Source: Chiloscyllium plagiosum (Eukaryota). From it: DNA of 64,000 bases. The stretch is from NCBI RefSeq assembly GCF_004010195.1, contig NC_057759.1, forward strand, positions 2,539,679 to 2,603,678, read 5' to 3'. Shown piece by piece: positions 1,971 to 32,373 of this stretch; positions within the stretch are counted from its first letter, which is position 1, and each line of letters starts with the position of its first letter. A model generated the notes under the pieces. The model was not told the origin of the DNA. It worked only from the letters and a program-made list of their open reading frames with translations, and did not search any database. Position numbers and translations under genes: made by a program.

Positions 1971-2045
1971 TTATTTCTGCGATGGCTCACTGAGGTTCAG
2001 TGTGCCGTATGTGACAAAATAATCATCTGGGTCAGTCTTGGCATC
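1971..2045 (-). pseudogene. Terminal coding exon with ITIM (DAKTDPDDYFVTYGTLNLSEPSQK*)
   Basis: tctttcaattgcag|GAT...AAA TAA. VTYGTL fits the ITIM consensus V/I/L/S-x-Y-x-x-L/V. Confidence 0.7.
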
Positions 2046-2849
2046 CTGCAATTGAAAGATATCGGAATGAAACTGGAAACGAGTGGGAGCAGGAAGCTGA
2101 AGAGAAGGGAAAGATCTGTTGCGAAGCAGTTAGCATCGCGTATCTGGGGAAAATGGGAATGACCAGCAGACGTTCAGGTATTGAGAGTTCGAAATCTGGT
2201 GACACAGTGTTAATGTCCCTACCTCGCAGCCAGTAGGCCAGGGTTCAAGTCCCACACGCTCCTGCGGTGTGCGATAAACACTATAAAAAGCAGGAAGATG
2301 ATGTTGAGTGGGACAGGACTTTGTTGAGGTCACAGCTGGAGCACTGCATGCAATTACACACTCCACACTATAGGAAGGATATGATTGCATTGGAGGGGTG
2401 CAGAGGAGATTCATGAAGATACTCCCTGGGATGGAGCATTTCAGCGATGAAGAGAAGCTAGATAAGCTCGGCTTGTTTACTTTGGAGCAGAGAAGTCGAA
2501 TGTGGTTTTGATTTTTTTGCCATCCACTTATGGGATGGCAGCATCCCTGGCTGGGCCAGAATTTTGTTGCCCACTTTCTAGTTGCTCCCTTGAAAATACG
2601 ATGGTGAGCTGCATTCCTGAGCCACTGTAGTTCCCGTGTTGTAGGTGGACTCACAACTCACTTAGGGAGGGAATTCCAGCATTTCGACCCCGTGACACTG
2701 AAGGAATGGCTGATGTTTTTCCAAAGGATTGCGATTGGCTCAAAGCGGATCTCACAAGGGTAGTATTCCCATCTGCAGCTCTTGTGCGTCCACATTGAAG
2801 TAGTGTTACTGCTGCGACCCTTTGGGTACAAATGATAATGGACAATTGT

Positions 2850-3745
2850 ACGTGGAATGATACAGAGTGAATGGGCTATCGCATTGAGAAAGGGTGGCTG
2901 ATGATTTCCCACTGTGCTTAAAGGCAGACACAGAGTTGGGTGGAAGGGGAGTTGTGAAGGAAGATTCAGAGATTTTTCAGTATGATTTAGACAAGTTGAG
3001 CAATTGAGCCAAAGCATGGCAGATGCAGTTTAATGTACATCAGCATGAGGTTATTCAGTTGAGAGCAAAAACGATAAGGTGGATTATTATCTGAAGGACA
3101 ATGACTGGGAAAGGGGAGAAGTGCAGTCAGTTGCTGAAAGTGAACACTACAGGAGCAGCAGGCGGTCAACAAGTTAAATGGGATGTTGGCCTTCATAGTG
3201 AGAGGATTCTCACTATGATGTGGGATGATTTGCTGCAATTGGACGGGGTGGTATGTTACCCTAAATTGTTGTCTGTGCAGTGTGGGTTCACCTTATTTGA
3301 GGAAGAACATCCTGGCTATGGATGGTGTTTCCTAGATTGAGTCCTGAGATGGCAGGACCAACGGATGGAGTTTAGAAGAATGAGGGGAAATCAAATAGAA
3401 ATCTGTAAAACGCTAAGAGGACTAAAGAGGGTAAACACAAGAAGGATGTCCCCGATGAACAAAAGGGAATACAGAACCAGGGAGTAACACTCTAAAGGAG
3501 ACAGGGTAGGACTGAGACGTGGAGAAATGTCTTCACCTGGAGAGTGAGGAACCTGTGGAATTCCTGCTGCAGAAAGTGGTCGGCGTCAGGAGGCTGAATG
3601 TTTTTTCAAGAAGGACTGCTTAGGGGTAAAGGGAGAGCGTGGGGGAAGAGGGGCAGGGGAGTGAGTTGGATGATCCTATTGAATAGGGAGAGTAGGCTGG
3701 AAGGGCTGAGAGGATTACTCCTGCTCCGACTTTCTAACGTGTATA
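2850..3745 (+). mobile_element. Decayed CR1-group LINE 3' fragment
   Basis: Degenerate RT C-terminal region (W..WQMQFN, VQ.W.P.L) plus the 3' UTR ending actcctgctcc. Confidence 0.7.
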
Positions 3746-3811
3746 CTTCGATTGGTCTGATAAGAATCAACAGTTCCCCTTTTACACTGTGGATGCAAGG
3801 TATAAATCTAC

Positions 3812-3848
3812 CTGCACTTTCTGCGGCAATAGCCATAGCCTATTTCGA
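3812..3848 (-). pseudogene. Candidate cytoplasmic exon, 37 nt, phase 2-0 (RNRLWLLPQKVQ)
   Basis: acattttcag|TCGAAAT...GTGCAG|gtagat. It joins the phase-0 ITIM exon in frame. Confidence 0.45.
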
Positions 3849-3966
3849 CTGAAAATGTAACATTCCTTCTTCCTATCAGAGGAGAAACCAACATTTGCCT
3901 AAAAACTATAACAGAATGAGCTGCGAAGGAACACTTTGCAGACATTAAGAATTTGAGCGGACTCAC

Positions 3967-4030
3967 TGAGGGCTTATCAACATCAAAGATGTCGCTGAAT
4001 CTTTCAGCAGCGTAGCTGTGTTTTTGTCAA
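3967..4030 (-). pseudogene. Candidate cytoplasmic exon, 64 nt, phase 1-2
   Basis: Weak acceptor (ttttaaaag) and strong donor (CTCA|gtgagt). It is open (VDKNTATLLKDSATSLMLISP) and phase-compatible with the flanking exons. Confidence 0.3.
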
Positions 4031-4460
4031 CTTTTAAAAGATGTCAGTGCAACTCTTTCTGAATTGACCCTCTCAAACAATCCAGACACTTCAGAATATC
4101 GCATTTAGAAAACTCACTCTGATTAAATCCTTCCAGCTGTATTTTTTTAGGATGCGAGTCAATGTAACACCTTAGGCAGACCTTCTTAATCGCATCAGCC
4201 TTTACATCACTTGCCCGGCTGTTGTACATGAATTAACAGGAGTGAACCATGCAGATGACATACATTGGTGTCTTGGCCGCTGTATGCTGTTAGTTCCAAA
4301 TAGTTCAGTTGGTTGAAGGCTAGCTTTTGTCATGCATTGCATGCAAAACCTTGGGAATAGTGTGTGGATAATTTCCAAACCAGCTGAGTCCCTGAAGGAC
4401 TCTCCTTCTGAGCCTCTCCCTTTCATGGGGCATGATGGCTCCCAAGTTAAACCACCACCC

Positions 4461-4475
4461 TTCTCTCTCTTTTTC

Positions 4476-4508
<33 letters not shown>
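4461..4508. repeat. (CT)n microsatellite
   Basis: Direct reading. Confidence 0.9.
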
Positions 4509-5088
4509 AATGAGGGAGCAGGATGATGGTCTGGCAGAACATTAAAATTTCCTGTGCATTCATCAAGACAAAGACTAGGATGCGTTCTGAGAGACAGATT
4601 TCATTGTTCACCAGGTCAAGTTGAGTTCAAATGTCCCTTATGGGCTTTGACAAGTGTACATGTGATAATTTTCAGTTCATCTTTTTGAGCAAAAAATACC
4701 ATGCAGTGGTTTTATTTTCTCTGTCATCTTCACTCAGTAGATGATAGAATTTGGCAAATTGTCTTGCCTTGAATATTGAGTAACGAAAATAACACTTGCT
4801 TTCTTTCTCTCCACAGATGCTACCAGACCTGCAGAATTTCTCTAGAATTGTCCGAATTTGTTTCAGTTCTCTAGCAACTGCAATTCTTAGTTTTATATGA
4901 AAAATATTTATATCTGCCTCAGTTAGGCGTAAAATGCACTTTCCATTTCCTTTTTCACACACATAATGTTCAAAAATGTAATTGTGAAGCAACCACCATC
5001 GTAACCCACTCAACAACACACACGACTATATCCCTCTCTATTTGATCTGCGTGTTTTTTCCTTGTCACTGATAACATATAAAACATAC

Positions 5089-5112
5089 CTGAAACGTTTG
5101 CCTTTACTCTAT
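5089..5112 (-). pseudogene. Candidate cytoplasmic mini-exon, 24 nt, phase 1-1 (xRVKANVS)
   Basis: tttaatctcctacag|ATAGAGTAAAGGCAAACGTTTCAG|gtatgt, with good sites on both sides. Confidence 0.55.
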
Positions 5113-5944
5113 CTGTAGGAGATTAAAGGTACAGAGAAGTTCAGATCGGGGCTTGTTTCTGATTAGCTGGTTTACTCTCTATTCCTTGTAAATGGTGGAG
5201 AGTTATTTTGGCAAACCCTTTGTACCTTACACTCCAGTCACTAGAAACACTGCAGTATTTATGTGTCCGGAACTGGTCACACACAGAGACATTTCCACAG
5301 CAATCGGGAACACGCTATTGTTGGAGTTGCAATGATTTTCACCCTCTCTCTCTCGCACAATCATAATATTGAGAAGATGAGATTTTGACCAGTCTCCATT
5401 GTCTTCTTGATGGTGACTACTAAATAAACTAAAACCGGATAAAATGCACACAAGAAGCACCCATCGATCAGAAAGCTTCATTATAATGGGCTAAATTTAC
5501 ATGGATTAGATAGATTGATATACGGTGTCAATATCTATACCAGAGAGAGATAGGAGCTTGATTAGTGAGGGGGATCAAGGTTTATGGGGAGAAGAGAGGA
5601 GAATGAGGTTGAGAAACATTCTGCCGTGCTTGAGTGGCAGAGCTGACTGGATGAACTGAATGGCCGAATTCTGCTCCTCTATCTTATGGCCCTATCCAGA
5701 CAAACATATAAACATGCATAACGATAGATAACATTAGTGATAACTACGTTAGTTCCGACCACTCGAAGGCTATGGTAGAGGAAATGTGCTGCTCTCCATT
5801 ATCCTTAGCTCGAAGCACTTGTGTGTCTCAGGAACCGGATCTTTGCAGTATTCGCTCATTGTAACCAATGTCTGTTGGATTTCCCAACACCAGAGTACTG
5901 CAACGTCAGTTTCTAATGTTACTTAAGGTAATTCAACTCCAAAT

Positions 5945-6440
5945 TCTTCTGCACCATCTATAAGGCACAAGTCAAGAATGTGATGGAATGCTCCTCACTT
6001 GCCTGAATGAATGGAGACTCAAATAACACTCAAGACACCATCCAGGACAAATCAGCCCACTTCGTTGGAACTCCCTCCACCAATGACGTTCAGTAGCAGC
6101 AGTGTGTACTACCTTCGAGATGAACTGCAGAAATTTAGCAAAGATCCTCAGACATCACCTGAGATCCCCACAAATACTTCCATCTAAAAAGACAAGGCAG
6201 GTAACAGATATATATGCAAACACCATCAACTCCAAGTCACTCACCATGGAAATATATCGTCATTCATTCATAGTCGCTTGGTCATAATCATGACTTTCCC
6301 TTCCTAATGGCATTGTGGGTCACCCCACAGCAGGTGGACTACAGCGGTTCAAGAAAGTATCTCATCATCACCTTCTTCAATGAATCTAGGGACAAGCATT
6401 AAATGCTGGGCCCAGCCAGTGCCGCCCACAAAGTGAATTT
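5945..6440 (+). mobile_element. L2/CR1-group LINE 3' fragment
   Basis: ccatctataaggcacaagtcaagaatgtgatggaa...cagcggttcaagaa...aaatgctgggcccagccag. Homologous copies lie at 7945-8560, 17060-17960 and 20215-20740. Confidence 0.75.
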
Positions 6441-7099
6441 TAAATATAAATACATAACTTGAGATAAAATAAACTTTGGTGAGGCAAGTAAGCCATTCTG
6501 ATGAAGATCCAAGCACAGGATATTAACAGCCGGAGCACTCTGGAAAAGGTAGAGGTCTACAACACAGAAAAAGGCAAATCGACCCATCGAATGTGTGCCA
6601 GTCAAAACCAGGCATCTCACTATTCTCCAGTTACATTTCCTGAGGACTTCGCCCATAGCAAGTGCCAATCTAAATCCTTCGTCATTGTGATGATGGGCAG
6701 TAAGTTCCAGATACCCCACCACACTCTGGGAAAATAATATTTTTCTTCACATCTCCTTTACGTTCAATCTATGCCCCTCCCCCAGTCATTGGTTCCGCGT
6801 TTCAAGGGAAAAAAATGTTTCTTCCTGTTTACCATATCTATGCTTCCTCATTGTTTTATAGATCTCAACAAGAAGGAGTTCATGTCTTGGGTTAAAGGGT
6901 TTGAACGGTACAAGGGAGAAAGCGGGGAACTGGGGACTAAATTGGATGGTCAGCCATGATCCAATCAAGTGGTCGAGGCAGGCTAGAAAGGCCCAATTAC
7001 CTACTCCTGCATTCCAGCTTCTGTATTCCCCCTCAGCCTCTGCAGTTCGAAGGAAAACAGTCGCACTCCAGCCCATCTGATGGCTCAGATGTTTATCCA

Positions 7100-7610
7100 G
7101 AATTTCTATGCTAGAACAGATTGAGGGTAGGAAGAAGAATGTGCTAAAATTTAGAAAAAACGTGGGATACATAAATCCCCTAGTTGGGAAGGCATATATC
7201 CTGTGTTACTACAAGTAGCGAGGGAAGACATTGCTGCTCCATTGGCGATGGAATAGCACCAGATGATTGGAGGGTGGCAAATGCTGGAACGGGAATGGAG
7301 ATAATTCTGGAAATTACAGATCAGTCAGCCTTACGTCAGTGGTGGGCAATGTATTGGAGAGAATTCTGAGACTCAGGATTTATGATTACGTGGAAATCCA
7401 TAGTTTGATTAGAAATAGTCAGCTTGGCTTTGTGAGGGGTGGGCCATACCGCACAAACCTTATTGAATTAATTGAGGATATGAAGAAACATATTGATGAA
7501 GGTAGAGCAATGGCTGTGGTGGGCAAGGACATTAGCAAGGTGTTTGATAAGATTCCCCATTGTAGGCTTGGTCAGAAAATAATGAGGTATGGAATACAGG
7601 GAAAACTGCG
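7100..7610 (+). mobile_element. CR1 ORF2 RT fragment
   Basis: GNYRSVSLTSVVGNVLERIL...SQLGFVRG...SKVFDKIPH. Confidence 0.85.
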
Positions 7611-7614
7611 ATTT

Positions 7615-7940
7615 TTGAGAAGGTTGTAGCTCAGGCTGTTGTTCAGGTTGTAACTTTGCTCATTTAGCTGGTAGGTTTACTCTCAGATGTTCTGACACTA
7701 TACTAGGAAACATCATAAGTGAGCCTCTGGTGACGTGCCGGTGTTCTGTCCCGCTTTCTATTTATGTGTCTTTGTCTGCTAAGGTAGGTGATACCATTTC
7801 CATTTTTTTTAGAAATGTTGGTACATGAGGTCCAATTCGATGTGCTTATTGATGGAGTTCAGTTTGAATATCAGGCCTCTAGGAATTCTAATGCGTGTCT
7901 TTGTTTAGCATATGCTCGGATGGATGGGTTCTCCCGTTGA
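7615..7940 (-). mobile_element. Penelope-like element 3' fragment
   Basis: Translates AKQRHALEFLEA, resembling a GIY-YIG C-terminus, followed by terminal-repeat-like sequence. Confidence 0.55.
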
Positions 7941-7944
7941 ATTG

Positions 7945-8560
7945 GTGTCCTTCTTCGCCAAGCCAAAGTAATACTGTGGCAGCTACAGCAGGTCAGAAAC
8001 TGGGAATCATGCAGGGAACAATTCATCTCCTGATTCCCCAAAGCATGTCCACCACCGACAACGCACAAACAAGAGCGTGATAGAATATTCCTCTGGTTGT
8101 GTGCAAATTCAACAACACTAGAGAAGCTCAACATCATCCAGGGACAAAGCAAACTCCGCTCTAATTGGCATCAACTCCAGAAAAATTAACTCCCATCACC
8201 ACTGACGTTCTATCGCAGCAGTGTGTACCACCCACACGATTCACTGCAGAAATTCACCAAAAACCTGAGACAGCGCCTTTCAAACCGATGGCTGCTTCAA
8301 TCTAGAAGCAAAAGGGCAGCAGATACAGGGAGCACCATTCGCTGTAATTTTTCCTCCGAAACGCTCGCTATCATGACGTGGAAATAAATTGACTATTCCT
8401 TCGCTGTTGCTGGGTCAATATCCTGGAATTCCCTTCCGAAGGGCATCATGAGTCTACCTACATCAAATGGACTGTATCGGTTTGAAAGAGCAGCTCACTT
8501 CCACCTTCTCAAAGGGGCAATTAGGGACAGGGGAGTGGGCAATAAACGTTGGGCTCTGAG
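7945..8560 (+). mobile_element. L2/CR1-group LINE 3' fragment
   Basis: AGQKLGIM...LLIPQSMST plus the same 3' tail as 5945-6440. Confidence 0.75.
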
Positions 8561-9894
8561 TAAAAAAATAACTCTCAGTGACATCAGCATGCCTGTCATC
8601 CTTCACCAACCACTGCACCCTTTTTTTTGTTGTAAGTACAATGTAAGTTCAGTTTGTTCTTAAAAAGGGGAAGTGCGAAACATCCTCAGTAATGCTTAAA
8701 TTGGTGGTTCATGAAATCCCACTGAACAGAGACAGAAGGTAGCCATTTGGAGAAGTCAATCAGCAAACACGTGGTCTGGAGCTCCACGTGACTCCAAACA
8801 CATAAGGAAGTGAATTATTTCGGAATGCTCTGTGAAGGGGTTCAGCAAGACACTCACTTCGCAGAAATTCGTGTTTTTTTGACGAAATTCTCCCCAAATA
8901 ATGATTTTGTCAACAAAACTGCAAAAACACTGCTACTCCCAGACATTCATCCAAACTTGAACAATCAGCTTACTTTTCGGTCGAAACTGGATGAAAGGAA
9001 GGACTGCAGATGCTAGAGATCAGAGTCTAAGTTGGAGTAGGGCTGGAAAAGCACAACAGGTCAGGCAGCATCCGAGGAGCAGGCAAGTCGAAACGCCTGG
9101 CATTCTCTCCACAATCAACATTAATTTGACAATCGATGATATTTTGGTCAGAAGACCAGAGGAGATTGGGACAGAAAATGGTTATGCGTGGCTTTTGGAA
9201 ATTACAGGGAGGAAATCAGTGTGGGTAATGTAGCGCTATATGTGATGGGAAATGTACGACAGCAATAACAGTGATATTGGATCACATGGTGTGGAATCCA
9301 TCATGGGCAGAACAAAGATTACATTCGGAGTTTAGAAGAATGACGGGTTTTGGAATCTCATAGAAACCTATAAAATTCTTAGAGGACTAGACAAGGTAAA
9401 CACAGGAAGAATACTCTTGATGATAGGGTGGGAGGTGGTAGGGGAATCGAGAACCAGGAGATCACAGCCTAAAGGAGACGAGCTCTACTGAGATGGAGAG
9501 AAATGTCTTCATCTAGAGAGTGGGGAACCTGTGGAATTCTCTGTCACAGGAAGTGGTTGGGACCAGAACATTGAATGCTGTTTAGGAACGAGCTAGATAA
9601 AGTTCTTAGGGGTTAGAGAGTGGGAGGGCAGGAACTGAGCTGGATGATCAGTCACGATCCCAGTGAATGATCAGAGCAGCTGAATAGTGCCGAATGACCT
9701 ACTCCTACTCGTATTTTCTATATTCCATGTTAATAGAGTGTCGAGTTGGATGAGCTACCATCGTCATATTGAATGGCATTGCAGACTCGAAGCACTGAGT
9801 GCTCACATATTCCGGGTTCCTACGTTTCGATGTAACATGAAGGTTTAAGACACGGAATGAACTTGTTGACTTTATTTACCAAGTTCCATGTTCC

Positions 9895-10627
9895 CTATTT
9901 ATGGCATTTAATTCAGGAAAATGTGAGCCGTTACATTTTGGTCAGGCAGACCAGGATAGGAATGACATAGTTAATGCTCGGATCCTGAGGAGTGTTATCG
10001 AATATAAAGAACAAGGAATGCAGCAGCAAATCTGGAAAAGTGGTATTGCAGATGCACAGGGCGATGAGGAGCATATTTGGCATGCTTGCCTTCATTAGTC
10101 AGAGCACTGAGTACAGGAGTTGATTTGCCCTGCTCGAGGAAGGATTTTATTAAACTGGAAAGGGTTCAAAAAATTGACAAGGTTGTTAGCGAGACTAGAT
10201 CTTTTGATTGACAACAAGAGGCTAGATAAGCTGGGACTCTTATCCCTGGATTGTAGGAGGCTGAGGTGTGATCACATGGGGATTTATAAAATCATGAAGG
10301 GTATAGAGAAGGTGAATAACCAAAGCATTTTCCTTGGGTAAGGGAGTCTAAAACTAGACGGTACACAGTTTTATGGAGAAAGCGGGAAGGGACCCGAAAG
10401 GCAACGTTTTCACACAGATGTTGCTGTGTATATGAAATGAGCTGCACAGCAAGTGGTAGACGCGGATATAGTTGCAACATTTAAAAGACCTTTTGAGAGG
10501 TGCATGAGTAGGAAAAGTTTAAAAGGATATAGTCCAAATGGAGGCAAATTGGACTAGTTTATTTTGGAAACCTGGTTGGCATGGATGAGTTGGGCCTGTT
10601 TCCATGTTGGATAGCTCTGTGACTCTA
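9895..10627 (+). mobile_element. CR1 LINE 3' fragment
   Basis: MAFNSGKCEPLHFG and RLDKLGLLSLDCRRLRCD.. motifs, with a tgactct tail. Confidence 0.85.
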
Positions 10628-10711
10628 ACGTCCAAGGTTGTGTTGCTTTAATCTAGTGTGGTATTCAAGGTCAAAGCACCAACTTTGTACGTGAGCTGAT
10701 TGTTCAATTAC

Positions 10712-10982
10712 TCTTTGGATGATTTCTACTCCTTCACTGTGTAGAGGTACTGTTGACTCATTCCTCACCGAACAATGGTAAAACCCTTCATCCCTTCTGG
10801 TCATGGCTCAAATGTTGTAAACAAGTTCAGTGCTGTTGGAAACTTCCAATACAATTCCTCGCTTGAGCCCTTGTAGAATTGTAATAAATCGGCAAACAGC
10901 CTTAGGATTAAGGATCCTGTGTTTACTTCGATTAACTCACTTCTGAGTTGAATTATTAGAAATGGTTTTGACACTGGAATTG
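10712..10982 (-). pseudogene. Ig domain exon resembling FCRL D3 or PECAM type, with several frameshifts
   Basis: attttcag| then IPVSKPFLIIQ..ELIE..; in shifted frames GxLPIYY, FYK and SNSTELVYNI*AMTRRDEGFYHCSVRNESTVPLHSEGVEII; then gtaatt. Confidence 0.85.
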
Positions 10983-11455
10983 CTGAAAATATGAACAAAT
11001 GTGAGGTCCCTCTGTTAGGCGTAGTCAATTGCAAACTCAACTATGAATTTCATCAAAGTCACATACATTTTCATGTCCTTCTTTTCATTATTCATGCAGA
11101 GGATGTGGGCATCACTGGGTAGTCAGTCACTTATCTCCGGTCCCTAATGACACAGACGGCAGTTAAGGATTGTAATGCTGGAGTCACATTGATTCCCTTT
11201 TGAACTGAAAATCAGATTCAACCCAACACGAGGTAGGACTCTGACTTCGTAGGGCATAGAACAGTACAGCACAGGAACAAGTCGTTCAGCCGACCATATC
11301 TGTGTACGACCATGCTGTTATTCTATTCTGATCCAATCTGACTGCACATGGTCCATGACTCTCTATTTCTGCCTGTTCATTGTCTGTCTAAATATTTCTT
11401 AAACTCTACTATAGTACATGCTTCTACTTCTTCGTTCCAGGTACCTACCATCAGT

Positions 11456-11568
11456 GGGCGGCACGGTGGCACAGTGGTTAGCAGCGCTTTTTGCGCTTCG
11501 GCGGGTCGGTGTGGACTTGTTGGGCCGAAGGGCCTGTTTCCACACTGTAAAGTAATCTAAAAAAAAAA
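11456..11568 (+). mobile_element. HE1-type SINE, internally deleted, inside a minus-strand CR1 tail
   Basis: Head gggcggcacggtggcacagtggttagca is joined almost directly to the tail gggccgaagggcctgtttccacactgta, then aatct and an A-run. Confidence 0.8.
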
Positions 11569-13153
11569 CCTTGTCTCACATATCTCCTTTAAAGTCGCTC
11601 CCTTTCACCTGAAAGCTGTGTTCCCCTACTATTTGACACTTCCAAACTAGGCGAACGTTTCTGACTCTCCACCCTCTCCAGGCCTCTCATAATTGTATAT
11701 ACTTCGATCAGGTCACACCTCAGCCTCTGATGCTGTTAGTGAAAACAATTCAATTTTGTCCAACCTCACCTCATACCTAATACACGCCAATACAGGCAAG
11801 ATTCTGGCAAATCTCGTTTGCACTATCTCTGAAGCCTCCACACGCTTCCTATAATGTGGGGACGAGAACAGCACTCAAACTTCTTTACTGCCTAACGCTC
11901 CTGCAAAAGGGAGAGGCTCTCATAATGAGATACTGGAAAAACGTAGATTGTTTTGCTTTGGGCGGCGGAGGCTGTAGGGAAACTTGATAGAGGTATGTAA
12001 GGTTATGCTTTGCATAGATCGGATCACGCATGTAAAAGGGCCATGAGGGGAAATATTTTCACACAGACAGTAGTGAAAGTATAGAACGCGCTGCCCGACG
12101 GCGTGGTGGAAACTGGTACAATTACAGCATTTAAAAGTTATTTGGACACTTATATGGATAGGAACAGTTTAAAAGAGTATGTGCCATGCACAGGCAAGTG
12201 TGACTAGTTTAGGAAACCTGGTCAGAATGGACGAGTTGGGCTGAAGGGCCTGCTTGCATGTTGGAATCAATGTTTATGACTCTCACGGCTGCACCCTCTT
12301 CTCTGTACATCACTGCCACTTGGGGGTTTGTCCTGCTGCGAGGACAGCGACACCAACGGCACGGGTTCAAATTCTGCACTGGCTAGTATGACCATGAAGG
12401 GCTCTCCAATACATCTCTCGCCTCTCCTGATGTGTGATGATCCTCACATTAAATGACCACTAAGTGTCCTCACTCGCTGACGAGAGAGAGGGGCTGTGGT
12501 GACTTTGCTATCTTTCCCATTACTCATAAACCGTTAAAGGAAGTGATATTGACAAAGAAGACAGAGAGAGGATGTTTTTTTCCTGTGGCAGTCTAGAACG
12601 ATCAGTTATCGTTTCAGGATAAGGGAGTGAGGCAGATTGAGTACTGAAATGAGAAGGAATGGCTTCTCTCAAAGGGGGCGATAGTGATGATGAGACAGTG
12701 AATAAGCTTGGGTTGTTTATTCTTCGGCAGGGAAGTTGTTGGGGTGCGAGGTGGGGCGGGAAGTGACCTGATAGAGATGTGTAAGATTATGAAGGACATT
12801 CAAGGACATTTTCTCAGGGTAGAGGAGTCCAAATCTGGAGTGCATTATTTTAAAGTGAACGGCAGGCAGGAATTTGAGGATAGTGATGGGGGTCTTGAAT
12901 GCACTGCTGGGAGGAGTGAAGCCTCACAATGTGGACGTGGACAAGCACTTGGAATATAATAACATTCAAAGCTGCGGTCTTAGTGCAGGAAAGTGGGGCT
13001 CGTTTACAATTAATATTTCTTTGGCAATACAGACATAATGGGCTGAAGGAATTCTTCAGAACTGCATAATTCAGAATGTCTCCAGTATTTAGATCAACAA
13101 TTCAGAGAAATATAAATATTGTCTCCCGTTAGATTGTAACATTCGGTACGTAC

Positions 13154-13410
13154 CTTGAACCTGAACATCAACAGGCCTTGAGGTGTGTGGGTAATTTTTA
13201 CATCTTCACAATCCACTGTCATTGGTAATGTTTGCATTAATGCTGTATGAAGATTCGCGGTTTTTAGACGTCATTGAATGGATCATCTTGCCGTTTTTGT
13301 GAAAGGTAAATTCTCTCTCCCACCTTCTATTGTCTGTGTACGACATTTTAGTTCCATGATCTCTCCTTCGAACAGTGAAACTGGGACAACATGGAAAGCC
13401 ATATATGCAT
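13154..13410 (-). pseudogene. Ig domain exon resembling FcR D2, with a frameshift and a stop
   Basis: tcttag|...CAAG|gtacgt, 257 nt (not a multiple of 3). Reads DAYMAFHVVPVSLFEGEIMELKCRTQ / NRRWEREFTFHKNGKMIHSMTSKNRESSYSINANITNDSGL*RCKNYPHTSRPVDVQVQ, matching the FEG..L.C, F.KNGK, DSG.Y.C and V.VQ motifs. Confidence 0.9.
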
Positions 13411-13927
13411 CTAAGATTGAAAGCAAAAGTTGCATTATTATGAGAAGGTGTACAAATATAACAGAAATTGACAATTCATAAAAAAAACTTTGTAAGAGTA
13501 AAAGACAAGGACAATGATTATTACAATAGCAGCAGGAGGTAGATAAGAGTGCATATCAGCAAGATAAATAGGAATGGGACTGACAATTCATACTGATATC
13601 ATATGACACTCAGACCTCAGAGTAAAGGATTCTGTTGGCAATAGTGATTGTGAATTTTAGTTGATGCAATCAGTTAGTTGGATAAGAATGTGAAGTGATG
13701 TGTTGACAGACAAGAAAAGAGCACCACTTTCTGGGTAAAAGCACCTCTCCTCATCTTATTCCTACCCCATCTCCTTGAGACTGTGACACCCCCCGTCCCC
13801 CGGGTCTGGACATCTATCCCACTCACAGGGTTATTGGGAACATCCTTCTTGTTTTTACCCTGTCTAGTCATAGAGTCAAACAGCATGGAAAGAAAGTCTT
13901 TGATCCAATCAGTCCATGCACCCAAAT

Positions 13928-14225
13928 GGCTGGCACGGTGGATCAGTGGTTAGCACTGCTGCTTCACGACACCAGGGTCCCAGCTTCGATTCCAATCTCG
14001 GGGACTCTCTGTGTGGAGTTTGCATATTCTCCCCGAGTCTGCGTGGGATTGCTCCCGTTTCCTCCCACAGTCCAAAGATGTACAAATCAGGTGAATTGGC
14101 CATGCTGGCTTGCCCATAATGCTTTAGTCAAAGTAGAAACGGGTCTTGTGGGTTACTCTTCGGAGGGTCGGTGTGGAGTGGTTGGGCCGAAGGGCCTGTT
14201 CCCATACTGTAGGGGACCTGATCTA
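13928..14225 (+). mobile_element. HE1 V-SINE
   Basis: tRNA head, V-domain tgtgtggagtttgcatattctcccc...tcctcccacagtccaaaga, and HER1-type tail. Confidence 0.9.
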
Positions 14226-14295
14226 GTTTTCCATACACTGCTCCAACCTATTACGTTTAACGCATATTTTCCAAACCTTTCCTATTCATACGTTT

Positions 14296-15300
14296 AGGAG
14301 AAGGAGAGGAGTGCAGCTGCTGGAAAGTCAGAATCAAAAAGTGTGGCACAGGAAAAACATAGCAGATCAGGCAGCATCCGAGGAACAGGAGAGTCATTGA
14401 ATCAGGTATAGGCCCTTGGTCAGGAATGTGGGGGTGGGTTTTCTTTAGAGGGCGGAAGGGAAGGGTGCAGTGGATTGGATGGCGAGGAAGTCGGATTGGT
14501 ATGACAGGTCAAGAGGGCATTTCCGAGTTGTAAAGTTGAATTTGGGATGAGGTGGCGGGATGAGAGATCTGGAAACTAGTGAAGTTGATGTTGATGCCGT
14601 GTGTTTGGAGGGTTCCAAGGCAGAAAATGAGGCCTGCTTCGTTCAGTCGTCAGGTGGCTTGGATTTGGAGGTAGAGGAGGCCCAGCATGTATATGACCTT
14701 TGGCAAGTGTGATGGGTGTTGAAATGGACGGCCACAGGACAGTCGGGTGTTTGGTGCGTGTGACCCAGAGTTATTCCCTGAAATGATCCGCAAGTTGGCA
14801 TCCTGTCTCACCAATGTAGAGGAGGCCACATCGAGAACAACGGAACAGTTGGGTGGATATGCAAGAAAATCTCTGCCAGATTTGAAATGATCTTTTAGAG
14901 CTTGAGGACGAAGCTGTGGGCGCAGGTTTTACATCTCGTGTGACAGCAACCGAAGGTGCTAGGTTTAGTTGGTGGGTAGGTGAGGGGCGTGAAACTAACA
15001 AGGGAGTCACAGAGTGAATAGTCTCTGTGGAACACATGTAGGGGTAGGAACCCAAATATATCTGGTGGCAAGGTCTAATTGTCGATGATGGAAATGGCGG
15101 AGGATAATGCTCTGTCTCCACAGATTAGTGGAATGGTAGGTAAGGATCTGGGGATTCCATGGTTTTTTTGCGGTGGAAGTGGTGGTTTTCAAGTGCAGAG
15201 GTATGGTAAGTGGAGGAGGTGTAATGCAAGGCATTGCTGATCACGTTGGAGGGGAAATTACGGTCCTTAAAATAGGCGAGAATCTGGGATGTCCTGGAGT
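14296..15300 (-). mobile_element. Penelope-like element 3' part (GIY-YIG endonuclease plus pLTR)
   Basis: FRCSRCGLLYIGETGCQLADHFRE, with a terminal repeat at about 14296-14430. Confidence 0.85.
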
Positions 15301-16820
15301 GAACTTATCCAAATGTCTGCTAAACCTTGTTATTGCAATTGCATCCAACAATTCCTCTGGCAGTTTATTCACCAGGCCCACCACTCTGTATTAAGTAAAT
15401 TGCGCAAAAGGCTTTTTAAAAAAGTGTTTCTCTGCTTACATTTAAAATATGCAGTTTAGTTTTGAAGTCCGACCCTAGGGAAAAGACCTTATCTATGCCC
15501 CTCCTGATTTGGTAATAATCAATAAGGTCATCCCTCAACCTCCTCTGCTACAGTACAGAATGTAACTGAATTTCTAATCCAATTTCATCTCCATTCCAAG
15601 TAACATATGGGTAAATCATTTCGGAACCCTCTCTAGTTTTACAATATCCTTCCTGTAAAAGGGGTGACCAGAATTGCACTCAGTATTCCACAAGAGGCCT
15701 CAGCAACATCCTGCACAACCTCAATATAACATCCCAACTCCTACAATCAAAGGTCTGAGCAATAAAGTCATGCATATTGAATGCCTTCTTAAACAAACTT
15801 TGACGCAAATTTAAAGAATTATATAACTGAACCCCCATGACTCTGTGTTCTACAGCACTACCCAAGGCCCAATCATTAACTGAATAAACCTTGTCCTTGT
15901 TTGTATTACCAAAATGCAATATCCCACATTTATGCAAATTGAACTCCATCTGCCACTCCTCTGCCCAGATCCAGATCTCTATGTAATCTCAGTTTACCCT
16001 TTCCACTTTTCGCTACACCACGAATTTCGGTGTCTTATGCAAACTTACTAATCATATCATTAATTTTCTCATCCAAATCATTTATATAAATGACAAACAA
16101 CATTGCACTGAGCAATGATCCCATCGGAAAGCCACTGGTCATAGGCCTCCAATCTAAAAAAATACATACCGCCATTACTGTTTTCTGCTGTTAAAGCAAT
16201 TTTGTATCCAACTGACAATCCTGAATCCTAAGTGATCTAAATGCACTAATGAGTCTACTATGCGGAACTTTGTCAACGATTCTACGAAAGCCCAACTAAA
16301 TAACGTCTAACACTCTGCCCTCATCCATCTCTTTGGTTACTACATTAAAACTTCAATTAGGTTTGAGAGATCCGATATCTCTTGTAAGAAACCATGCTGA
16401 CTCCTCTTAATCAATCCTTGCCTCTCCAAATGTGCATAAACCCTTCCTTTCAGAACCATTTCCAACAACTTACCCATCAGTGATGCAAGACAGACTGACC
16501 TATCGTTTCCATGCTTCTACTTACAGTCTTTCTTTAACAACGACACAACATTAGCCACCTTCCAGTCCACCGTGATAATAAATGATAGAATTATTGCTGT
16601 TAAAAGCCCCACAATTGCCTCCCTAACGTCCCATAACATCCTGACAATTTGATCAGGTCCTGCTAATTTATCAACATTTATGTTTTCTCAGACCTTCAAC
16701 GCTTCCTCGTCTGTAATGTGAACTGTTCTTAAAACATCTTTACTTATTTCCTTGAGGTCTCAAGCCTCCACTGTTTTCTCAACAGTCAAAACTGACGCGA
16801 AATATTAATTTACTTTCTCC
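15300..16820 (-). mobile_element. CR1 ORF2 RT fragment
   Basis: MEFNLHKCGILHFG...LLRPLVEY plus degenerate upstream RT motifs. Confidence 0.85.
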
Positions 16821-17059
16821 TGGTAGAACGGTAAAATTTTCTATCAGATTCCCTCCTCATTCTTCTGAAGTCCAGTGAATGTAATCCTAAGCAATCCAAT
16901 TTGTCTTCATCCGTCAGTCATGCCATCCCAGGAATCAGTCTTGGAAACCTTCGCGCTCCTTCTCCATAGCAGAACATCCTTCCTCAGAATCTGAGAACCA
17001 AACTGCACACACAATATCTAGGGTGTGGATTCACACTTGACAATTGCAGCAAATATTTC

Positions 17060-17965
17060 TTTTATTCACTCAAGGCCTATGGGCATCCATGTTTGTCTCT
17101 AGTTGCTCCCCTGAGAGGGTGGTAGTGAGATGCCTTCATGGATGTGCTGGAGATAGATCCACAATGCCCTGAGGGAGGGAATTCCAGTATTTTGACAAAG
17201 CATTACTGAAGGTACTATTGATATATTTCGAAATCATGATGGTACTATTGATATATTTCGAATCAAGAGGGGAACCTTGGAGGGCGTGGTGTCCCATGTA
17301 TCTGCTGTCCATGTTCTTCTGGATGGAAATGGTCGTGGATTTGGAATGAACTATCATAGGATCCTTGATGAATTTCTGCAGTGCATCTTGCTGATGGTAC
17401 AAAATGCTGAGACGATGATGGAGGGAGTGGATGTTCGTGGATGTGGCACCAATCAAACGAGTGTTGCTTTGTCCCTGAACGGTAGTGAGCATCTCGAGTC
17501 TTGTTGGGGATGCACCAATCAAGGCAAGTGGGGAGTATTCCATTACATTCCCATCTTCTACCTTGTCAGGAGATGAGTTACTCACTGTAGGATTTCCAAC
17601 CTCTGACTTGCTCTTGGAGTCACTGTGTTTATGCAATGAATCCAGTTGAGTTTCTGGCGAACAAGATGCTGACATTTGGGGATTCAGTGATGGCAGCAAC
17701 ATTGAATGCCAAGAGCATGGCGGGTTGATATTCTGTTGTGGGAGTTGCCATTGCCTGGCATTTGTATAACACCTGGCACAAGTATTATTTGCCACTTGGT
17801 AGTCCAGCCCTGGTATTGTTCAGATCATGCTGCATTTGAACATGGACTACTTCAGTCTCTGTGAAGTAGAGAAAAGTGCTGAACGTTGTGCAATCATCAG
17901 TGAACATCCGCACGTCTGACCTTATGATGGAGGGAAGATCATTGATGAAGCAACCCTGCTCCTGT
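17060..17965 (-). mobile_element. L2/CR1-group LINE RT and 3' fragment
   Basis: CFINDLPSIIRSDVRMFTDDCT. It contains a ~30-bp tandem duplication (ggtactattgatatatttcgaa) at about 17211-17265. Confidence 0.85.
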
Positions 17966-18068
17966 CCTCGACTCTCCATCACTGGGAGGGCCCTGAGAAA
18001 ACAACGTACACAGACGTAGCATCGAATTGTCAAAACATTCACTGGCACTAACTGAGTAAAGGAATTAC

Positions 18069-18336
18069 CAATCTGGTACTGTGAGACTTAGAGTGTTCGA
18101 AACCCACTTTATAAAGCCAATTCTTAACTCACATCGATAAGATACTTCATCTGAATACGCTGCAATTTCGATGGTGAGTGCCCCATATATAGGTTCTTCG
18201 ATTCACCCATTATTTCGATATCATTGGAAATGGTTTCCGCTCAGTTTCTGGGATTGGGTCTGGCAATTCATTATAATCCTTTCATAACTGACAACATGTT
18301 GTGGTTTTGCTTCCAAAGTTAGCGTTTCGTCAGAAA
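18069..18336 (-). pseudogene. Ig C2-type domain exon with two TGA stops
   Basis: tttctcttgtag| then SDETLTLEAKPQHVVSYERIIMNCQTQSQKLSGNHFQ*YRNNG*IEEPIYGALTIEIAAYSDEVSYRCELRIGFIKWVSNTLSLTVPD, then gtaatt. It has the C...(W)YRN...D..SY.C pattern. The donor is 1 nt off the expected phase. Confidence 0.85.
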
Positions 18337-19053
18337 CTACAAGAGAAATGTGTCAAAAGTTGGACACAAAATCGGATTAGATAACAACAAATTGCAGATG
18401 AGAAATCAATTGTGTTGGTTCTCAGTGATATCAGAGCTGTGCAGGACTTTGTTCAGGATATTTTCTTCAGAGAGGTTTGGTGGTTGGGGAGGGTGGTACT
18501 GACAGAGATGTGTGACATTCTGTGGGACATGGACAGGGTAGATTGGAAGCAGCTGTTCCCCCCAGTTGAATTGTCAATAACGAGGGGGCATCATTTTGAA
18601 ATGAAAGGCAGGAGGTTTTGAGAAGGATATCCGTATTTTTCTACCCAAAGGGTGGTAGGCGTGACTGACTCAGCCTTGACTGATCTCTATAATAAGAAAT
18701 TCCTCTAATAGGAGACTCCCCCTCTGACCTCGACTCTCCCACACAAGACGAAACAAGCTCTCTCCGCAACGTACCGCCCCCTGTCAATCCCTGTAAGGGT
18801 CTTCAAGAAGGTTACCTCCTATTCTTCTAAATTCCAGTGAGGAGAGACCCATCTACTTAACCTCTCCTCATGAGAAATTACCAAGTACCAGTTCAGGTGC
18901 CTAACCTTATGGAAGTGTCTTATGCTGAAAAAATGCATACTTGGCTGAAAATAGTCTGGGAGGTCAGGAAAACAATTAAATCAAGGTGCACTCCACTTCC
19001 ATATAGCATTTTCTGTGTAATGTGAAGTCAATCTGGACTACATGTGACTACAG

Positions 19054-19236
19054 CTGGAAATGTGTTGCTGGAAAAGCGCAGCAGGTCAGGCAGCATCCAG
19101 GGAACAGGAGAATCAACGTTTCGGGCATAGAAACGTCGGTTCTCCTGTTCCCTGGATGCTGCCTGACCTGCTGCGCTTTTCCAGCAACACATTTCCAGCT
19201 CTGATCTCCAGCATCTGCAGACCTCACTTTCTCCTC
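19054..19236. mobile_element. Penelope pLTR-derived hairpin element with 16-bp target-site duplication
   Basis: Inverted arms at about 19052-19122 and 19130-19200. The flanking direct repeat ctacatgtgactacag is at 19038-19053 and 19237-19252. Confidence 0.85.
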
Positions 19237-19362
19237 CTACATGTGACTACAGACCCACAGGAATGTGGTTGATCCTTAACTGCCCTTTGTGATGGGCAAC
19301 AAGTGCTGGCCTAGATAGTGATGTCCTCATCCCACAAACTATATTTTAAGAAGTACACTTAC

Positions 19363-19602
19363 CAGTGATGACAGCTTTAATAGGTTTACTCCAGTTCCAT
19401 GGGAAGGTTGTGTTGCAGGAGTAAGACCCACCACTTTCACTGTTTGCAAGCATTTCATAAACATTACTTTGTGTCTCAGTGATGTTCACGCTATTTTTGT
19501 ACTAAGAAACCATTTTTCCTTTATCTGTTCGACACTTCAATTTTACAGTCTATCCTTCTTTTATGAACCTACTTGTGGGACATACATAAAGCACGTTCCC
19601 TC
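19363..19602 (-). pseudogene. Ig C2-type domain exon with two TAG stops
   Basis: 240 nt, ag|...G|gtaagt, phase 1-1. Reads GGNVLYVCPTSRFIKEG*TVKLKCRTDKGKMVS*YKNSVNITETQSNVYEMLANSESGGSYSCNTTFPWNWSKPIKAVIT. Both Ig cysteines are present and one stop sits at the conserved Trp of WYKN. Confidence 0.85.
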
Positions 19603-20214
19603 CTAACGCCGAAGAGACAGACAGACGGACAGAGAGAAGCAGGAAGGTTAATAATTCGGTCATTGCAACTTTTTGGACTCTCTCTGCTACAAACACAATG
19701 TGCAGTTCAGCTTCAGTGTCCCAGCATATGGAGCTTCATTTCGAATTGACTTCTGACTGAATGATCCAGTCAATTAAAAATTCTGAAATTGATTAATTTC
19801 GTTTTCACCTAACCCTGGATTTCTTGACGTGTCATCTCTGTACTATCAATCATTTCGCTAATTTCATTTTATTTGAAAAGACAATCACTGATAGGCATCG
19901 GGGAATCTACTTTTCTGATGAGTTAACTGCACCGATTATGTTTAGCCTTTTAAGGACACCTTTATTGGAGTGTGAAACCTTGTCTGCCATACTCAACGCT
20001 CTGGTTAAATTACAAATTGACCTGTGAATTTCAAAATTAAAACTCCCATGTTGTTTTTTTACTGTGCTCTCCAGAAAATCTCCCCGACCCCATGCAAAGG
20101 TTATTCAGTTTACCAGGCAGTGGTTATCTCCAATAAGAAGGAATCCAACCATCACCCTTTGCTTTCAGTGGTGTTCACATCAATGAACCATTGCCCTCCT
20201 CCCACCAAAGCCTC

Positions 20215-20740
20215 AAAAAGGTCTGTCCACCATCGAAACAAGACAGTTCAGGAGAGTGATGGAAAACTCCCCATTTGATAAGTGCAGCTCCAACAACAAA
20301 TGAGAAAGCTTGACACCATACAATACAAAGCAGCCTCCGCTTGATAGAAACCACATCCACAAACATCTACTTCCTCCATGCTCAGTAGCAGCAGTCTATA
20401 CTGTCTACAAGATGTACAGCAGAAATTCAACAAAGAACCTCAGACTGTAACTCCCAAACTTCCTTCTAGACGGATAAGAACAGACATGGGAATACCACCA
20501 CCTGCAAGTTCACCTCCGAGCCACTCACCATGCGAACTTGGAAATATATCGAATTTTCCTTCAGTGTCGCTGGTGTCAAAATCCTGGAGTTCCTTCGCTA
20601 AAACTATTATGGGTCTATCTACAACGCACAGACTGCAGCGGTTCAAGAAGACAGCTCACCACCAACTTTCAAGTACAACTCTGGACAGACAGTAAACCAT
20701 GGGCCCAGCCAGCGAAGCGATGTGCCATGGCTGAATTAAA
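20215..20740 (+). mobile_element. L2/CR1-group LINE 3' fragment
   Basis: Homologous to 5945-6440. Confidence 0.75.
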
Positions 20741-22281
20741 TTTCATCTGTCATGTGCCTGTCTAATATAGATTATTATATTCCCCTCTATTATTGTCCCG
20801 CAGTCTCATCCTCGTTTGTGGCTTTTCCAAGTGTTCTGATCTCTTGTATTCAATTGAAGACCAGAACTGAAGTCAATGTCCATTTATATTTATCATAACG
20901 GTTATCGCAGCTATTTATGATCTATATGAGCAACTTTTCAGTACTGATGTCCTGTCAAAAAATAGACAGTACCATCCATTTTCTTCATCCATGTCCGCAA
21001 ATAAATTGCCTCAATGCTTACTGCCATTATCTATCAGGATCGGCCCCTTGAATTGCGCTGGTGCTGTTGGATTTGTAATATAATATTTTACCTTTAGCTT
21101 CTCAAGACTTTTTGAATAAATGAACTATAGAAATTCGGTTAAAACCTTCGTTTTACTTCTTATCTATCAATTCATCTATTATTGACAATGCCTTCGTACT
21201 TTAAAACCATAAGACCATGAGAGCTTTTAGCCCCTTCAGCGCTCTCCATTATCCAATTATATCATGGCAGATTCGTCATTCCTCACGTTCCCTTTCCGAC
21301 CCTTTCCTTTGATTCCTTGACTGGTCCAAAGTCTTTTAAGTCTCAGCCTTAAGTATACGCAAGGACTCTTCCCCCCACACAGCATTCTGTGGCAAGGAGT
21401 TCCAAAGACTCACAACTCTCAGAGAAGAAACTCCTCCGAATCTGTCTTCCATTTATGCCCCTTTATTCAGAGACTACGCTCTCTGGCCCTAGGCTTTCCC
21501 ATGAGGACAAACATTCTCTCAGCATTGATCCTACATGTTTCAGTTAGATCATCTCTCATTCTTCTTAACTTCATTAATTGAGCATGAACCTGTTCAGCCT
21601 TTTGACAAAAAACAATTCCACTCTACCAGCGATCATCGCAGTGAACCTTTCTTGAATGCCTCAAAGGAAGTTTTCTCTTTCCTTAAAATAGGAAATAAAA
21701 TTGTTCACTGTTTTGTAGTCCCAATGCAGTTCCCCAGCATCTTATACACTTGCAATAAGACTTTCTTACTCTTCATCTTCAATCCTTTACAACAAGGACT
21801 AACAATCCCTCTGCCCTCCCTGATTACCTGCTGCCGCCATGTGCTAGCTTTCTGCCTTTCGTGAACATTCCCCGCCATGTATCCTTGTATTGTAGCTCGC
21901 TGCGGTTTTTTTGTCCATTTAAATTAGACAATATTCTCCCTTCTAAAGTGATCGTAACTTTGTGCTTCCCCAAACACCTTGTTTTAAATCTCAACTCATT
22001 TGAAGTATTGTAGTGGAGTTAAACTTTGATACAGATATGCTGAATGGACTCTGTCCAATGTGAGTCATGATTTGTCCACATTGTAACGGCTGGATAATGC
22101 TCACTGGAGAAGAGTTGAAAACGATTCTGATCTCTGAGAGACTATCCCTAACAGAGGACCAGAAAGACTCGAATCAAGTTCCATTTGATGTGCATTTGGG
22201 AAAAGTTCAGTGAAAAAAAATGTGCCCAACAAGACTCCGAATTTTCAAACGATTTTCAAAGAAATGTGCAATTCCTCCTAC

Positions 22282-22311
22282 CTTTGGTGATCCCATAGAG
22301 AGCAAGATTCA
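22282..22311 (-). pseudogene. Candidate leader mini-exon, 30 nt, phase 1-1 (xNLALYGITK)
   Basis: ttctgtcttctag|TGAATCTTGCTCTCTATGGGATCACCAAAG|gtagga. It is open, in frame and hydrophobic. Confidence 0.5.
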
Positions 22312-22766
22312 CTAGAAGACAGAAGTGAATTGAAGTGCAAATGTCAATATTTCTGTCGGTGTCTTTGAAACATCAAAGCAATGTAAGTGAAGAAGCAACA
22401 GAGAAGCAGCACATGTCCTGTCAATAACTCAATGGCAACTGTTGACTCTTTATTCCCATTTAAGTGCAAATGCGAATTGCATTATGATCCCATTGATTTC
22501 TCGCTCTTTTCTCATGCCGCCATCAACTTTTGCTTTGTACATTTCTGTCTGTTATTTGTTCCATTTTCCCCTCCTGTTTTCTCTCTGGTCAGGTTCCCAT
22601 TCCCATGCCATTCTTCTTTAACAAGTAAAGGAGTCCATAAATCTAACTTTTTTGAAAAATAAAGTATGTTTGGGAAGGCTCTTACAAAACGAATCAAGTT
22701 CACATGGCTTTCTGGTTCTTGCCTCGAACAGATTCTTGGAAACCCCCGAAGTCAGCCAAGACTTAC

Positions 22767-22808
22767 CAATGATCTCTACACTGAGTTTTTTGGATTGAAG
22801 ACAAGAGG
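22767..22808 (-). pseudogene. Candidate leader mini-exon, 42 nt, phase 1-1 (TSCLQSKKLSVEII)
   Basis: ctgtag|CCTCTTGT...ATCATTG|gtaagt. It is open, in frame with S1, and has a strong donor. Confidence 0.45.
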
Positions 22809-23631
22809 CTACAGTTACAGCAGGGCTCTTCTCGGAACATGTGTGCTCAGTTTCAACATACATACACATCTTCCCCTGCATTTAAAGTCATTTCGCATGA
22901 GAGTTAGGACCATCTTCAATTTTAATTCAGAGCCAGAGAGGTCTGTAGCACAGGAAAAAGGCCCATCAGCCCGTAATCCTTGTGCTGTACAAAAACAGCT
23001 ACCTCAATATTCTTTAATCCCATTTTCCCAGCATGTGGCCCAAAGTATTGGCAACACAAGTGCACATCTAAATCCTTCTTCAATGTGATGAGTGTTTCTG
23101 CCTCTCCCACTCTTACGGGCAGTGATTTCCAGATTCCCTACCACCCTTTGGGAGAAAACCTTTTTCCACAAATCCCCCTCTAAACCTCGTGCTCCTTACC
23201 TTCAGTCTATGCTCTCCCAAACCTGTCATACATTCCTCCAGCAAGGTGGAAACGCATCTTCCTGCCTACCTTATCTATGCCCCACATTACTTTATATATC
23301 TCAATCATGTCTCCCCACCCTCCCCACTCAATCTGGTCTGCTCTGAGGAAAACAAACCCAGTCTGTCCAATCTCTCTCCAGCACTGAAACTCTCCAGCCT
23401 CCAAGGCAATAACCGGCTTAATCTCCTAATGTTGATGAAAAATGATGGTATTTCCATTCACTACCCAGTGAGATTTCTTGCCTTATATATTGTTAGACTG
23501 TGCTTTCCTTTGAAGGATTCTGAAATTCTAATGATCCTCTCCGTTGCCCTTACATTTTAGTCATATGCACAGTGCATCTTTTCCCGAGAAAGGAAAATTG
23601 TATGCACAAAGTAGAATCAAAGAACATTCAC

Positions 23632-23725
23632 CTCTCTCTCTTTCTCTCTCTTTCTTTGCTTCACCTCTGTCTCTCTCTCTCTCACACACACACATACACA
23701 CTCACTCTCTCCCCTCCTCTCCCTC
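23632..23725. repeat. (CT)n(CA)n compound microsatellite
   Basis: Direct reading. Confidence 0.85.
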
Positions 23726-23839
23726 ACCCCTCTGGAAAAGCTATCGTCAAAGCTCCAAACTATTTTTGTTGTCGATTTTTGCAAAGTTTGTAATTTTATG
23801 TTGGCCACAGTAATTAGTTCCTGCTTTACAAGAACTGAG

Positions 23840-23848
23840 GAGGAAGTG
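23840..23848 (+). promoter_or_regulatory. PU.1/ETS-like motif in the first intron
   Basis: GAGGAAGTG about 90 nt inside intron 1 of the putative leukocyte receptor. Motif match only. Confidence 0.25.
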
Positions 23849-23938
23849 TTTGATTAGCTGCTGCCAAATGTAACCTCGTGTGAACGGGGGACAAAGCAGA
23901 TTTGTCAGGGACAAGGTTCCTCTTTAACATACACTTAC

Positions 23939-23969
23939 TGGCGATCAGAAGCGCGGACATATGCGACAT
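23939..23969 (-). pseudogene. Leader exon S1 (MSHMSALLIA, phase 1)
   Basis: ggaaATG TCG CAT ATG TCC GCG CTT CTG ATC GCC A|gtaagt. It has 31 coding nt, a consensus donor and a hydrophobic end. A TATA-like TATAGATAAA lies about 80-90 nt upstream on the minus strand. Confidence 0.65.
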
Positions 23970-28547: not shown

Positions 28548-28715
28548 GGAGAATGTGAGGAGCTCAGATGCTGGAGATCAGAGTCAAAAATTGGAAAGGT
28601 ACAGAAGTTCAGGCAGCATCTGCAGAGCAGAGAAATTGATGTTTCGGTCATTTCTCATGAAGGGCGTCTGCCCTAAACATCAACTCCCCTGCTTTGCTTT
28701 CCCATCGCCGCACGT
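28548..28715. mobile_element. Penelope pLTR hairpin inserted in the Gypsy integrase
   Basis: gagaatgtgaggagctcagatgctggagatcagag... followed by its inverted partial copy. Confidence 0.7.
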
Positions 28716-31970: not shown

Positions 31971-32212
31971 TGTGAGATTAGACCCCAGCTGTCTTTTGTC
32001 TCAATGATGGATTGAAGATTATTTACGATTGAATCAAGCCTCATCAAAGCAAGTATTTCCAGTAAATACATCTGACAAATATGTCTTTCTTTAAATGACA
32101 ACTTCATTGCATTTTAATTTAACTATTGGCCTGGTAAAGCAGCATTATCAATTTTGTTTAGTTATCGTATATTACAAGTAATTTGGAGTCTAACTGTAGA
32201 AATGGTGCATTG

Positions 32213-32283: not shown

Positions 32284-32373
<90 letters not shown>

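Follow-up and report, generated by a model that had tools for sequence, protein, structure and literature searches.

A decayed gene copy leads to a probable cluster of FCRL-type receptor genes in the shark Chiloscyllium plagiosum

Introduction

The closest described relatives of the locus reported here are the tetrapod FCRL genes (human FCRL3, FCRL4 and FCRL5, an alligator FCRL5-like protein, P0166, and Xenopus XFL), in which a split leader is followed by phase-1 immunoglobulin (Ig) exons, encoding domains in the order D1-D2-D3-D3-(D4/5)-membrane-proximal, an uncharged transmembrane (TM) segment and a tail spread over several exons, which carries LVYSxV and xTYAxL motifs and ends with one of xIYEN type. 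They form lineage-specific clusters marked by exon shuffling and many pseudogenes. Here we analyze a 64,000-nucleotide stretch of the genome of the shark Chiloscyllium plagiosum (the window; G000:C50:2,539,679-2,603,678), whose minus strand holds the remains of a gene of this layout, together with the relatives of that gene elsewhere in the 3.56-Gb genome. Taken as a whole, the data make it likely that the window gene is a broken FCRL-type duplicate and that the intact copies in its cluster are inhibitory B-cell surface receptors.

The immunoreceptor tyrosine-based inhibitory motifs (ITIMs) of human FCRL2-5 dock SHP-1 and SHP-2 and weaken B-cell receptor signalling, and FCRL4 and FCRL5 bind IgA and IgG through their N-terminal domains (PMC4950983). 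In Xenopus XFL the Fc-contact residues are not conserved (PMC2413239). Teleost LITRs are likewise clustered multi-Ig leukocyte receptors and kin of FcR and FCRL (PMC4810170). For sharks, the available sections of a 2014 survey report no FcRL in the genomes (PMC4016189), a statement repeated in those of a 2026 review (PMC13337447), and the accessible parts of four further papers (PMC5278576, PMC7916592, PMC4810170, PMC10562807) hold nothing on the cluster described below, of which we found no description in the literature searched. A study of shark B cells lists fcgr1a-like, fcrl3 and fcrl5 by automatic name, with no family analysis in the part available (PMC11372145).

Results

The window gene is a multiply broken duplicate

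Coordinates of the window gene are window positions; its contig, C50, is 8.08 Mb long. Ig exons are labelled s1 to s7 in order, the transmembrane exon TM and the tail exons CY1 to CY5 (Table 1). The preliminary description of this DNA had proposed a hidden receptor gene with a minus-strand split leader, four Ig exons and a last exon bearing an ITIM. All of these parts are present, the ITIM reading VTYGTL; what they make up is not an intact four-Ig gene (stops, frameshifts and lost donors intervene) but a pseudogene in advanced decay, which derives from a seven-Ig gene and has lost the TM exon, and in the third Ig exon the DSG.Y.C motif reads DSGL*RC.

The window exons are 78-86% identical to their closest paralogues, comparison with which shows the four Ig domains to be the remnant of an ancestral seven. 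Stops or frameshifts occur in 4/4 of the remaining Ig exons, splice signals have been destroyed at several exon boundaries, and deletions at three places (approximately 5.5, 3.3 and 1.84 kb) have removed three Ig exons, the TM exon and two tail exons; none of the 13 genome matches to the TM exon lies within the window. The proposed gene end at 1971 corresponds to a premature stop codon; ancestrally, the reading frame closed at 1928-1926. DNA contigs from two further runs span s2 or s3 and differ there at one or two positions; the stops of s2 and the frameshift region of s3 are nearly unchanged in them, so these lesions are not an assembly slip. In a single-cell run at about 2% depth there are almost no reads on the window exons, and equally almost none on an intact paralogue; no RNA data covering the window stretch are listed.

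The window gene is, with near certainty, an ordinary pseudogene, a non-coding duplicate that itself makes no receptor. A copy still working as a secreted decoy or as a regulatory transcript, in which loss of the TM exon kept the reading phase, is exceedingly improbable. The deletion of TM, CY1 and CY2 does join phase-1 ends, Xenopus has secreted FcR-like forms (PMC2413239), and the last-exon stop is missing from one DNA run, which has a sense codon at 1973; however, with stops or frameshifts in every remaining Ig exon, two of them also without a donor, no Ig domain can be made, and a protein from this copy is already refuted by the sequence.

All four Ig exons nevertheless match domain profiles built from tetrapod FCRL only (15.1, 7.6, 6.8 and 5.7 bits), each exceeding the best score of every one of 20 block shuffles (maximum 3.1 bits). 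Two candidate parts were rejected: a 24-nt AG..GT piece at 5112-5089 as an exon, its donor not being kept in the paralogues, and an in-exon signal peptide ahead of s1, which is a polypyrimidine tract read in frame. Between 24,000 and 64,000 the window contains, among the frames tested, no more family exons and no Pfam-detectable host gene, only repeats and duplicated upstream DNA.

Table 1. Parts of the decayed gene and its flank, in window positions
Feature	Position	Strand	Observation
Leader exon 1	23939..23969	-	31 nt, ATG, phase-1 donor; aligned to paralogue leader exons
Leader exon 2	22282..22311	-	30-nt mini-exon
Ig exon s1, FcR D1-like	19363..19608	-	Two stops (19552, 19504); AG>GG at the ancestral acceptor
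Ig exon s2, FcR D2-like	18073..18336	-	Stops at 18223 and 18205; donor GT>AT (18072)
Ig exon s3, FcR D2-like	13154..13410	-	1-nt deletion near 13341; stop at 13208
Site of ~5.5-kb deletion; s4 and s5 (D3-like) lost	11874..12029		Colinear blocks against paralogue at C50:7.07 Mb
Ig exon s6, FCRL D4/D5 or PECAM membrane-proximal type	10718..10982	-	Three frameshifting deletions (11, 1, 1 nt); 30-nt deletion took donor
Site of ~3.3-kb deletion; s7 lost	7937..7961		Colinear blocks against paralogue
Site of ~1.84-kb deletion; TM exon, CY1 and CY2 lost	7108..7109		Colinear blocks; TM search
CY3 remnant, LVYSxV motif exon	5398..5441	-	Acceptor deleted
CY4 remnant	3866..3898	-	2-nt deletion; donor GT>GA (after 3866)
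Last exon CY5	1926..2045	-	ITIM VTYGTL retained; premature TAA 1973-1971; terminal (second) tyrosine motif lost
Upstream DNA duplicated along with gene	23970..33750	-	Blocks 70-79% identical to paralogue flanks

A cluster of copies along C50

Close copies of the window gene number at least 13-15 and, jointly with about 30 mostly broken exons of a divergent subfamily, are spread over C50 from 0.16 to 7.13 Mb. Of the DNA matches in the genome (4 for s1, 11 each for s2 and s3, 15 for s6, 13 for TM and 12 for the last exon), most lie in the 0.69-7.13 Mb interval of C50. Roughly six copies appear intact. The copies inspected that look able to code lie at 1.49, 4.91, 6.98, 7.07 and 2.52 Mb, two of them by skipping a broken s3, so the expectation that intact paralogues might lie nearby was borne out on the same contig. 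Damaged or partial copies occur at 2.43, 2.46, 2.89, 4.14, 6.13, 6.40 and 7.03 Mb. The 3.86-Mb copy includes an assembly gap, and its CY2 acceptor reads AA.

Intact copies carry 5-8 Ig exons, with one phase-1 exon per domain, an uncharged TM exon and five tail exons. The exon plan comprises a leader of 31 + 30 nt, a two-exon signal peptide found in five paralogues as well as the window; Ig exons of 246/267/258/282/273/285/303 nt; a TM exon of 99-102 nt; and tail exons of 31/74/60/35/120 nt. The tail encodes three ITIM-type motifs (LEYAxV, LVYSxV and ITYATL) and a terminal NxYxNI (YxN). The 4.91-Mb gene carries a duplicate of its LVYSEV tail exon and of one of its D3-type Ig exons (C50:4,896,711 and 4,895,999). 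The TM exon of the 7.07-Mb gene has an identical copy at G000:C7:22,479,348-22,479,498, possibly a misplaced haplotype piece.

The divergent subfamily is about 40% identical to these genes and includes an intact-looking five-Ig member at C50:2,503,000-2,526,100 (minus strand), directly downstream of the window gene, which is nearest to the catshark protein P0032 and has a damaged twin at 7.03 Mb. Its s6 exon has about 29 matches along C50, most with stops or in pieces. Among copies of the family, dN/dS is 0.76, 0.51 and 0.79 for s1-s3 and 0.54, 0.41, 0.31 and 0.34 for s4-s7; the distal domains evolve fastest and no value exceeds 1. Segmental duplication and birth-and-death probably account for the growth of the cluster.

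Homologues occur in Chiloscyllium punctatum, Hemiscyllium, Stegostoma, Rhincodon, Mustelus, Carcharodon, Pristiophorus, Scyliorhinus and the ray Narcine, and database proteins identical to copies neighbouring the window are labelled Chiloscyllium plagiosum. The family is not hidden from databases, which already contain the paralogues as automatic models under mixed names (FCRL, PECAM-like, perlecan-like), many of the RefSeq names being PECAM-like.

Placement of the family

In the Protein Data Bank (PDB), an intact paralogue matches human FCRL5 best (E = 1.7e-65, five domains in colinear order), then FCRL4 and FcgRI. The proposal that the window exons come from a single FcR/FCRL-type inhibitory receptor gene, a member of a shark family, is upheld. 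With single-domain profiles, FcgR, FceRI and FCRL5 stand at or close to the top of the PDB matches, and s1-s3 match D1/D2 of classical Fc receptors at E 1e-5 to 1e-9. Among shark domain profiles, s1 scores best with FCRL D1, s2 and s3 with D2, s4/5 with D3 and s7 with the alligator/frog FCRL membrane-proximal domain, so that six of the seven domain classes, and the tail, prefer tetrapod FCRL, in FCRL order. The best match of the tail among 141 references is an alligator FCRL (28.2 bits, PECAM reaching 3.0 or less), and under the whole-family profile FCRL of frog, otter and ostrich score 278, 202 and 162 bits and the top PECAM 151. The domain phylogeny bore out the proposed kinship in part: s2 and s3 join D2 (support 96/89) and s7 joins the alligator/frog membrane-proximal domain (99/98 and 97/97), whereas s6 goes elsewhere and s1, s4 and s5 find no supported place; a second domain tree left out five long-branch or window rows.

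The tetrapod features listed in the Introduction recur in the shark cluster, with B-cell expression among the likenesses if the name link discussed below holds. The shark genes differ from tetrapod FCRL in their 30-nt rather than 21-nt second leader exon, two tandem D2-type domains and an s6 closer to shark PECAM. They share s1-s3 with the classical Fc receptors (FcgRI-III, FceRI) but have 5-8 domains, a long four-tyrosine tail and no FcR-gamma-type TM segment. PECAM1 and MILR1 share one related domain (s6) and an ITIM tail on small exons, but have their own locus on C24, and the remaining domains and the tail score much lower against them. That locus was found through teleost PECAM1 matches, which fall at C24:48.0-48.1 Mb and not on C50; in the domain tree, domains 1 and 3 of the locus group with teleost PECAM (97/87 and 99/91). 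The first domain is present twice at C24:47.99-48.10 Mb, two Ig exons that follow PECAM1 are presumably MILR1-like, and we take an exon at C24:37.39 Mb to be C17orf99-like. A structural link between FCRL and PECAM-1 is said to be old knowledge, as a title in a reference list indicates.

Several observations weigh against our interpretation. For s6, the nearest domain is the membrane-proximal one at the shark PECAM1 locus (62 versus 41 bits; tree support 96/90), s1, s4 and s5 are unplaced, s1 on long branches, and the second leader exon departs from the FCRL-typical length. The reference set is thin, with no LITR, one mammal, one bird, one crocodilian, and teleost PECAM from Poecilia only. The NxxR activating TM motif, a point of difference from Xenopus, occurs in 0/13 close TM exons, although a DNA search would miss a different type of TM. 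No FCRL-type neighbour genes were found on C50 with the probes PF09128, PF05007 and PF11628 (SLAM, IGSF9, DUSP23 and TAGLN2 were not searched). For the window gene, dN/dS (0.78 and 0.48) is not above that of intact copies. Finally, two B-cell markers in the supplement of PMC11372145, LOC122544513 and LOC122544517, tie to cluster genes, among the C50 proteins XP_043539685-735, solely through product name and gene numbering, so that the link to B cells rests on names. As to the leader, the 30/21-bp rule describes mammalian FCRL1-6 and FcgRI and only a fraction of XFL in the portion of PMC2413239 available; since it is not universal in the family, we do not count the 30-nt exon as excluding FCRL.

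The affinity of s6, the PECAM-like RefSeq names, weak Ig_C17orf99 matches of s6 and almost equal Atlas feature scores of the FCRL and PECAM clusters (0.98 versus 0.97) could together suggest that the C50 cluster is an expanded offshoot of PECAM1/Allergin-1, comprising homophilic or adhesion-linked ITIM receptors. Given that PECAM1 has a separate locus on C24, that FCRL is preferred by all domain classes except s6 and by the tail, and that the whole-family profile ranks three FCRL proteins above any PECAM, we judge this highly improbable. We put about as much, if anything slightly less, faith in an elasmobranch sister lineage older than the FCRL-PECAM1 split, or in a mosaic with one shuffled PECAM-type exon: the mixed affinity of s6, the 30-nt leader exon and the long branches of s1 would suit either, but the genome already has a separate PECAM1 whose domains 1 and 3 pair with those of teleosts, and the tail and s7 match alligator and frog FCRL in detail. 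Structure prediction added little detail (AlphaFold pLDDT 67.6, pTM 0.37; Foldseek matches to generic multi-Ig proteins only, TM score about 0.2). The cluster is very probably an FCRL-type family.

Other genes on C50

Synteny probes matched elsewhere: C35 and a pair of unplaced contigs gave ARHGEF-type hits, C29 gave PIGM and C12 a zeta/gamma-type TM segment. A Pfam scan of C50 samples covering 298/673 candidate frames yielded nothing but histones, Ig exons and retroelements. At C50:7.21 Mb (L192:2169-2468, 3486-3806) lie apparently damaged frames of histone H3 and H4 type, a weak hint of synteny; human FCGR1A also adjoins a histone cluster. An exon at the contig end (C50:8.065 Mb; L162:5008-5610), with no Pfam hit, presumably resembles HECTD4. 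Exons of a third kind of Ig receptor, on the minus strand at 4.04 Mb and 5.13-5.15 Mb, are D2-like and D5/C17orf99-like, with an uncharged TM segment and IVYSAV. A gene at C50:7,252,000-7,260,600 (minus strand) has five Ig exons, an uncharged TM segment and LLYSKV, with weak, mixed matches to FCRL5, CEA, FceRI and PirB/LILR; at a guess, it could correspond to LOC122544480, a myeloid marker named 'IGSF1-like' in PMC11372145.

Discussion

In intact shark proteins the variable N-terminal D1/D2-type domains would bind ligand, whereupon the tail tyrosines would be phosphorylated and recruit SHP-1/SHP-2-type phosphatases, as in human FCRL2-5, and this recruitment would damp antigen-receptor signalling. 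We suggest such an inhibitory brake because the layout of the tail motifs is the same as in human FCRL. Splicing of the tail is documented in a related shark, in which contigs of one RNA-type run contain the CY1-CY2 and CY2-CY3 joints. As candidate ligand we lean slightly towards a variable pathogen or self surface molecule, since the dN/dS pattern and turnover of copies resemble those of Xenopus XFL with its unconserved Fc-contact residues; shark immunoglobulin is a possible but less probable choice, and a 1988 title, 'Fc receptor for shark IgM', appears among the citations of PMC6795676. We are doubtful of a larger scheme in which sharks would possess a chromosome-scale, all-inhibitory FCRL cluster whose two old subfamilies have been confined to B cells ever since the ancestor of jawed vertebrates, with one member being the long-sought shark IgM Fc receptor and the further FcR/LRC-like genes on the same small contig a relic of the region where both families arose.

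A 2021 paper in Immunogenetics reportedly describes two FCRL-related genes in the elephant shark. If this is right, shark FCRLs are already in print, and what is new here is only the size and anatomy of the cluster and its link to B cells. On its own, the window copy is of value only in pointing to its relatives and in illustrating birth-and-death decay, and the interest rests on the family. FCRL-type inhibitory receptors across sharks and a ray, sharing a domain and the tail with alligator and frog FCRL, would date the family to the jawed-vertebrate ancestor. The cluster supplies named candidates for tests of Ig binding in sharks, and it probably gives a new identity, as FCRL-type genes, to two leading B-cell markers of sharks that at present bear the names PECAM-like and perlecan-like.

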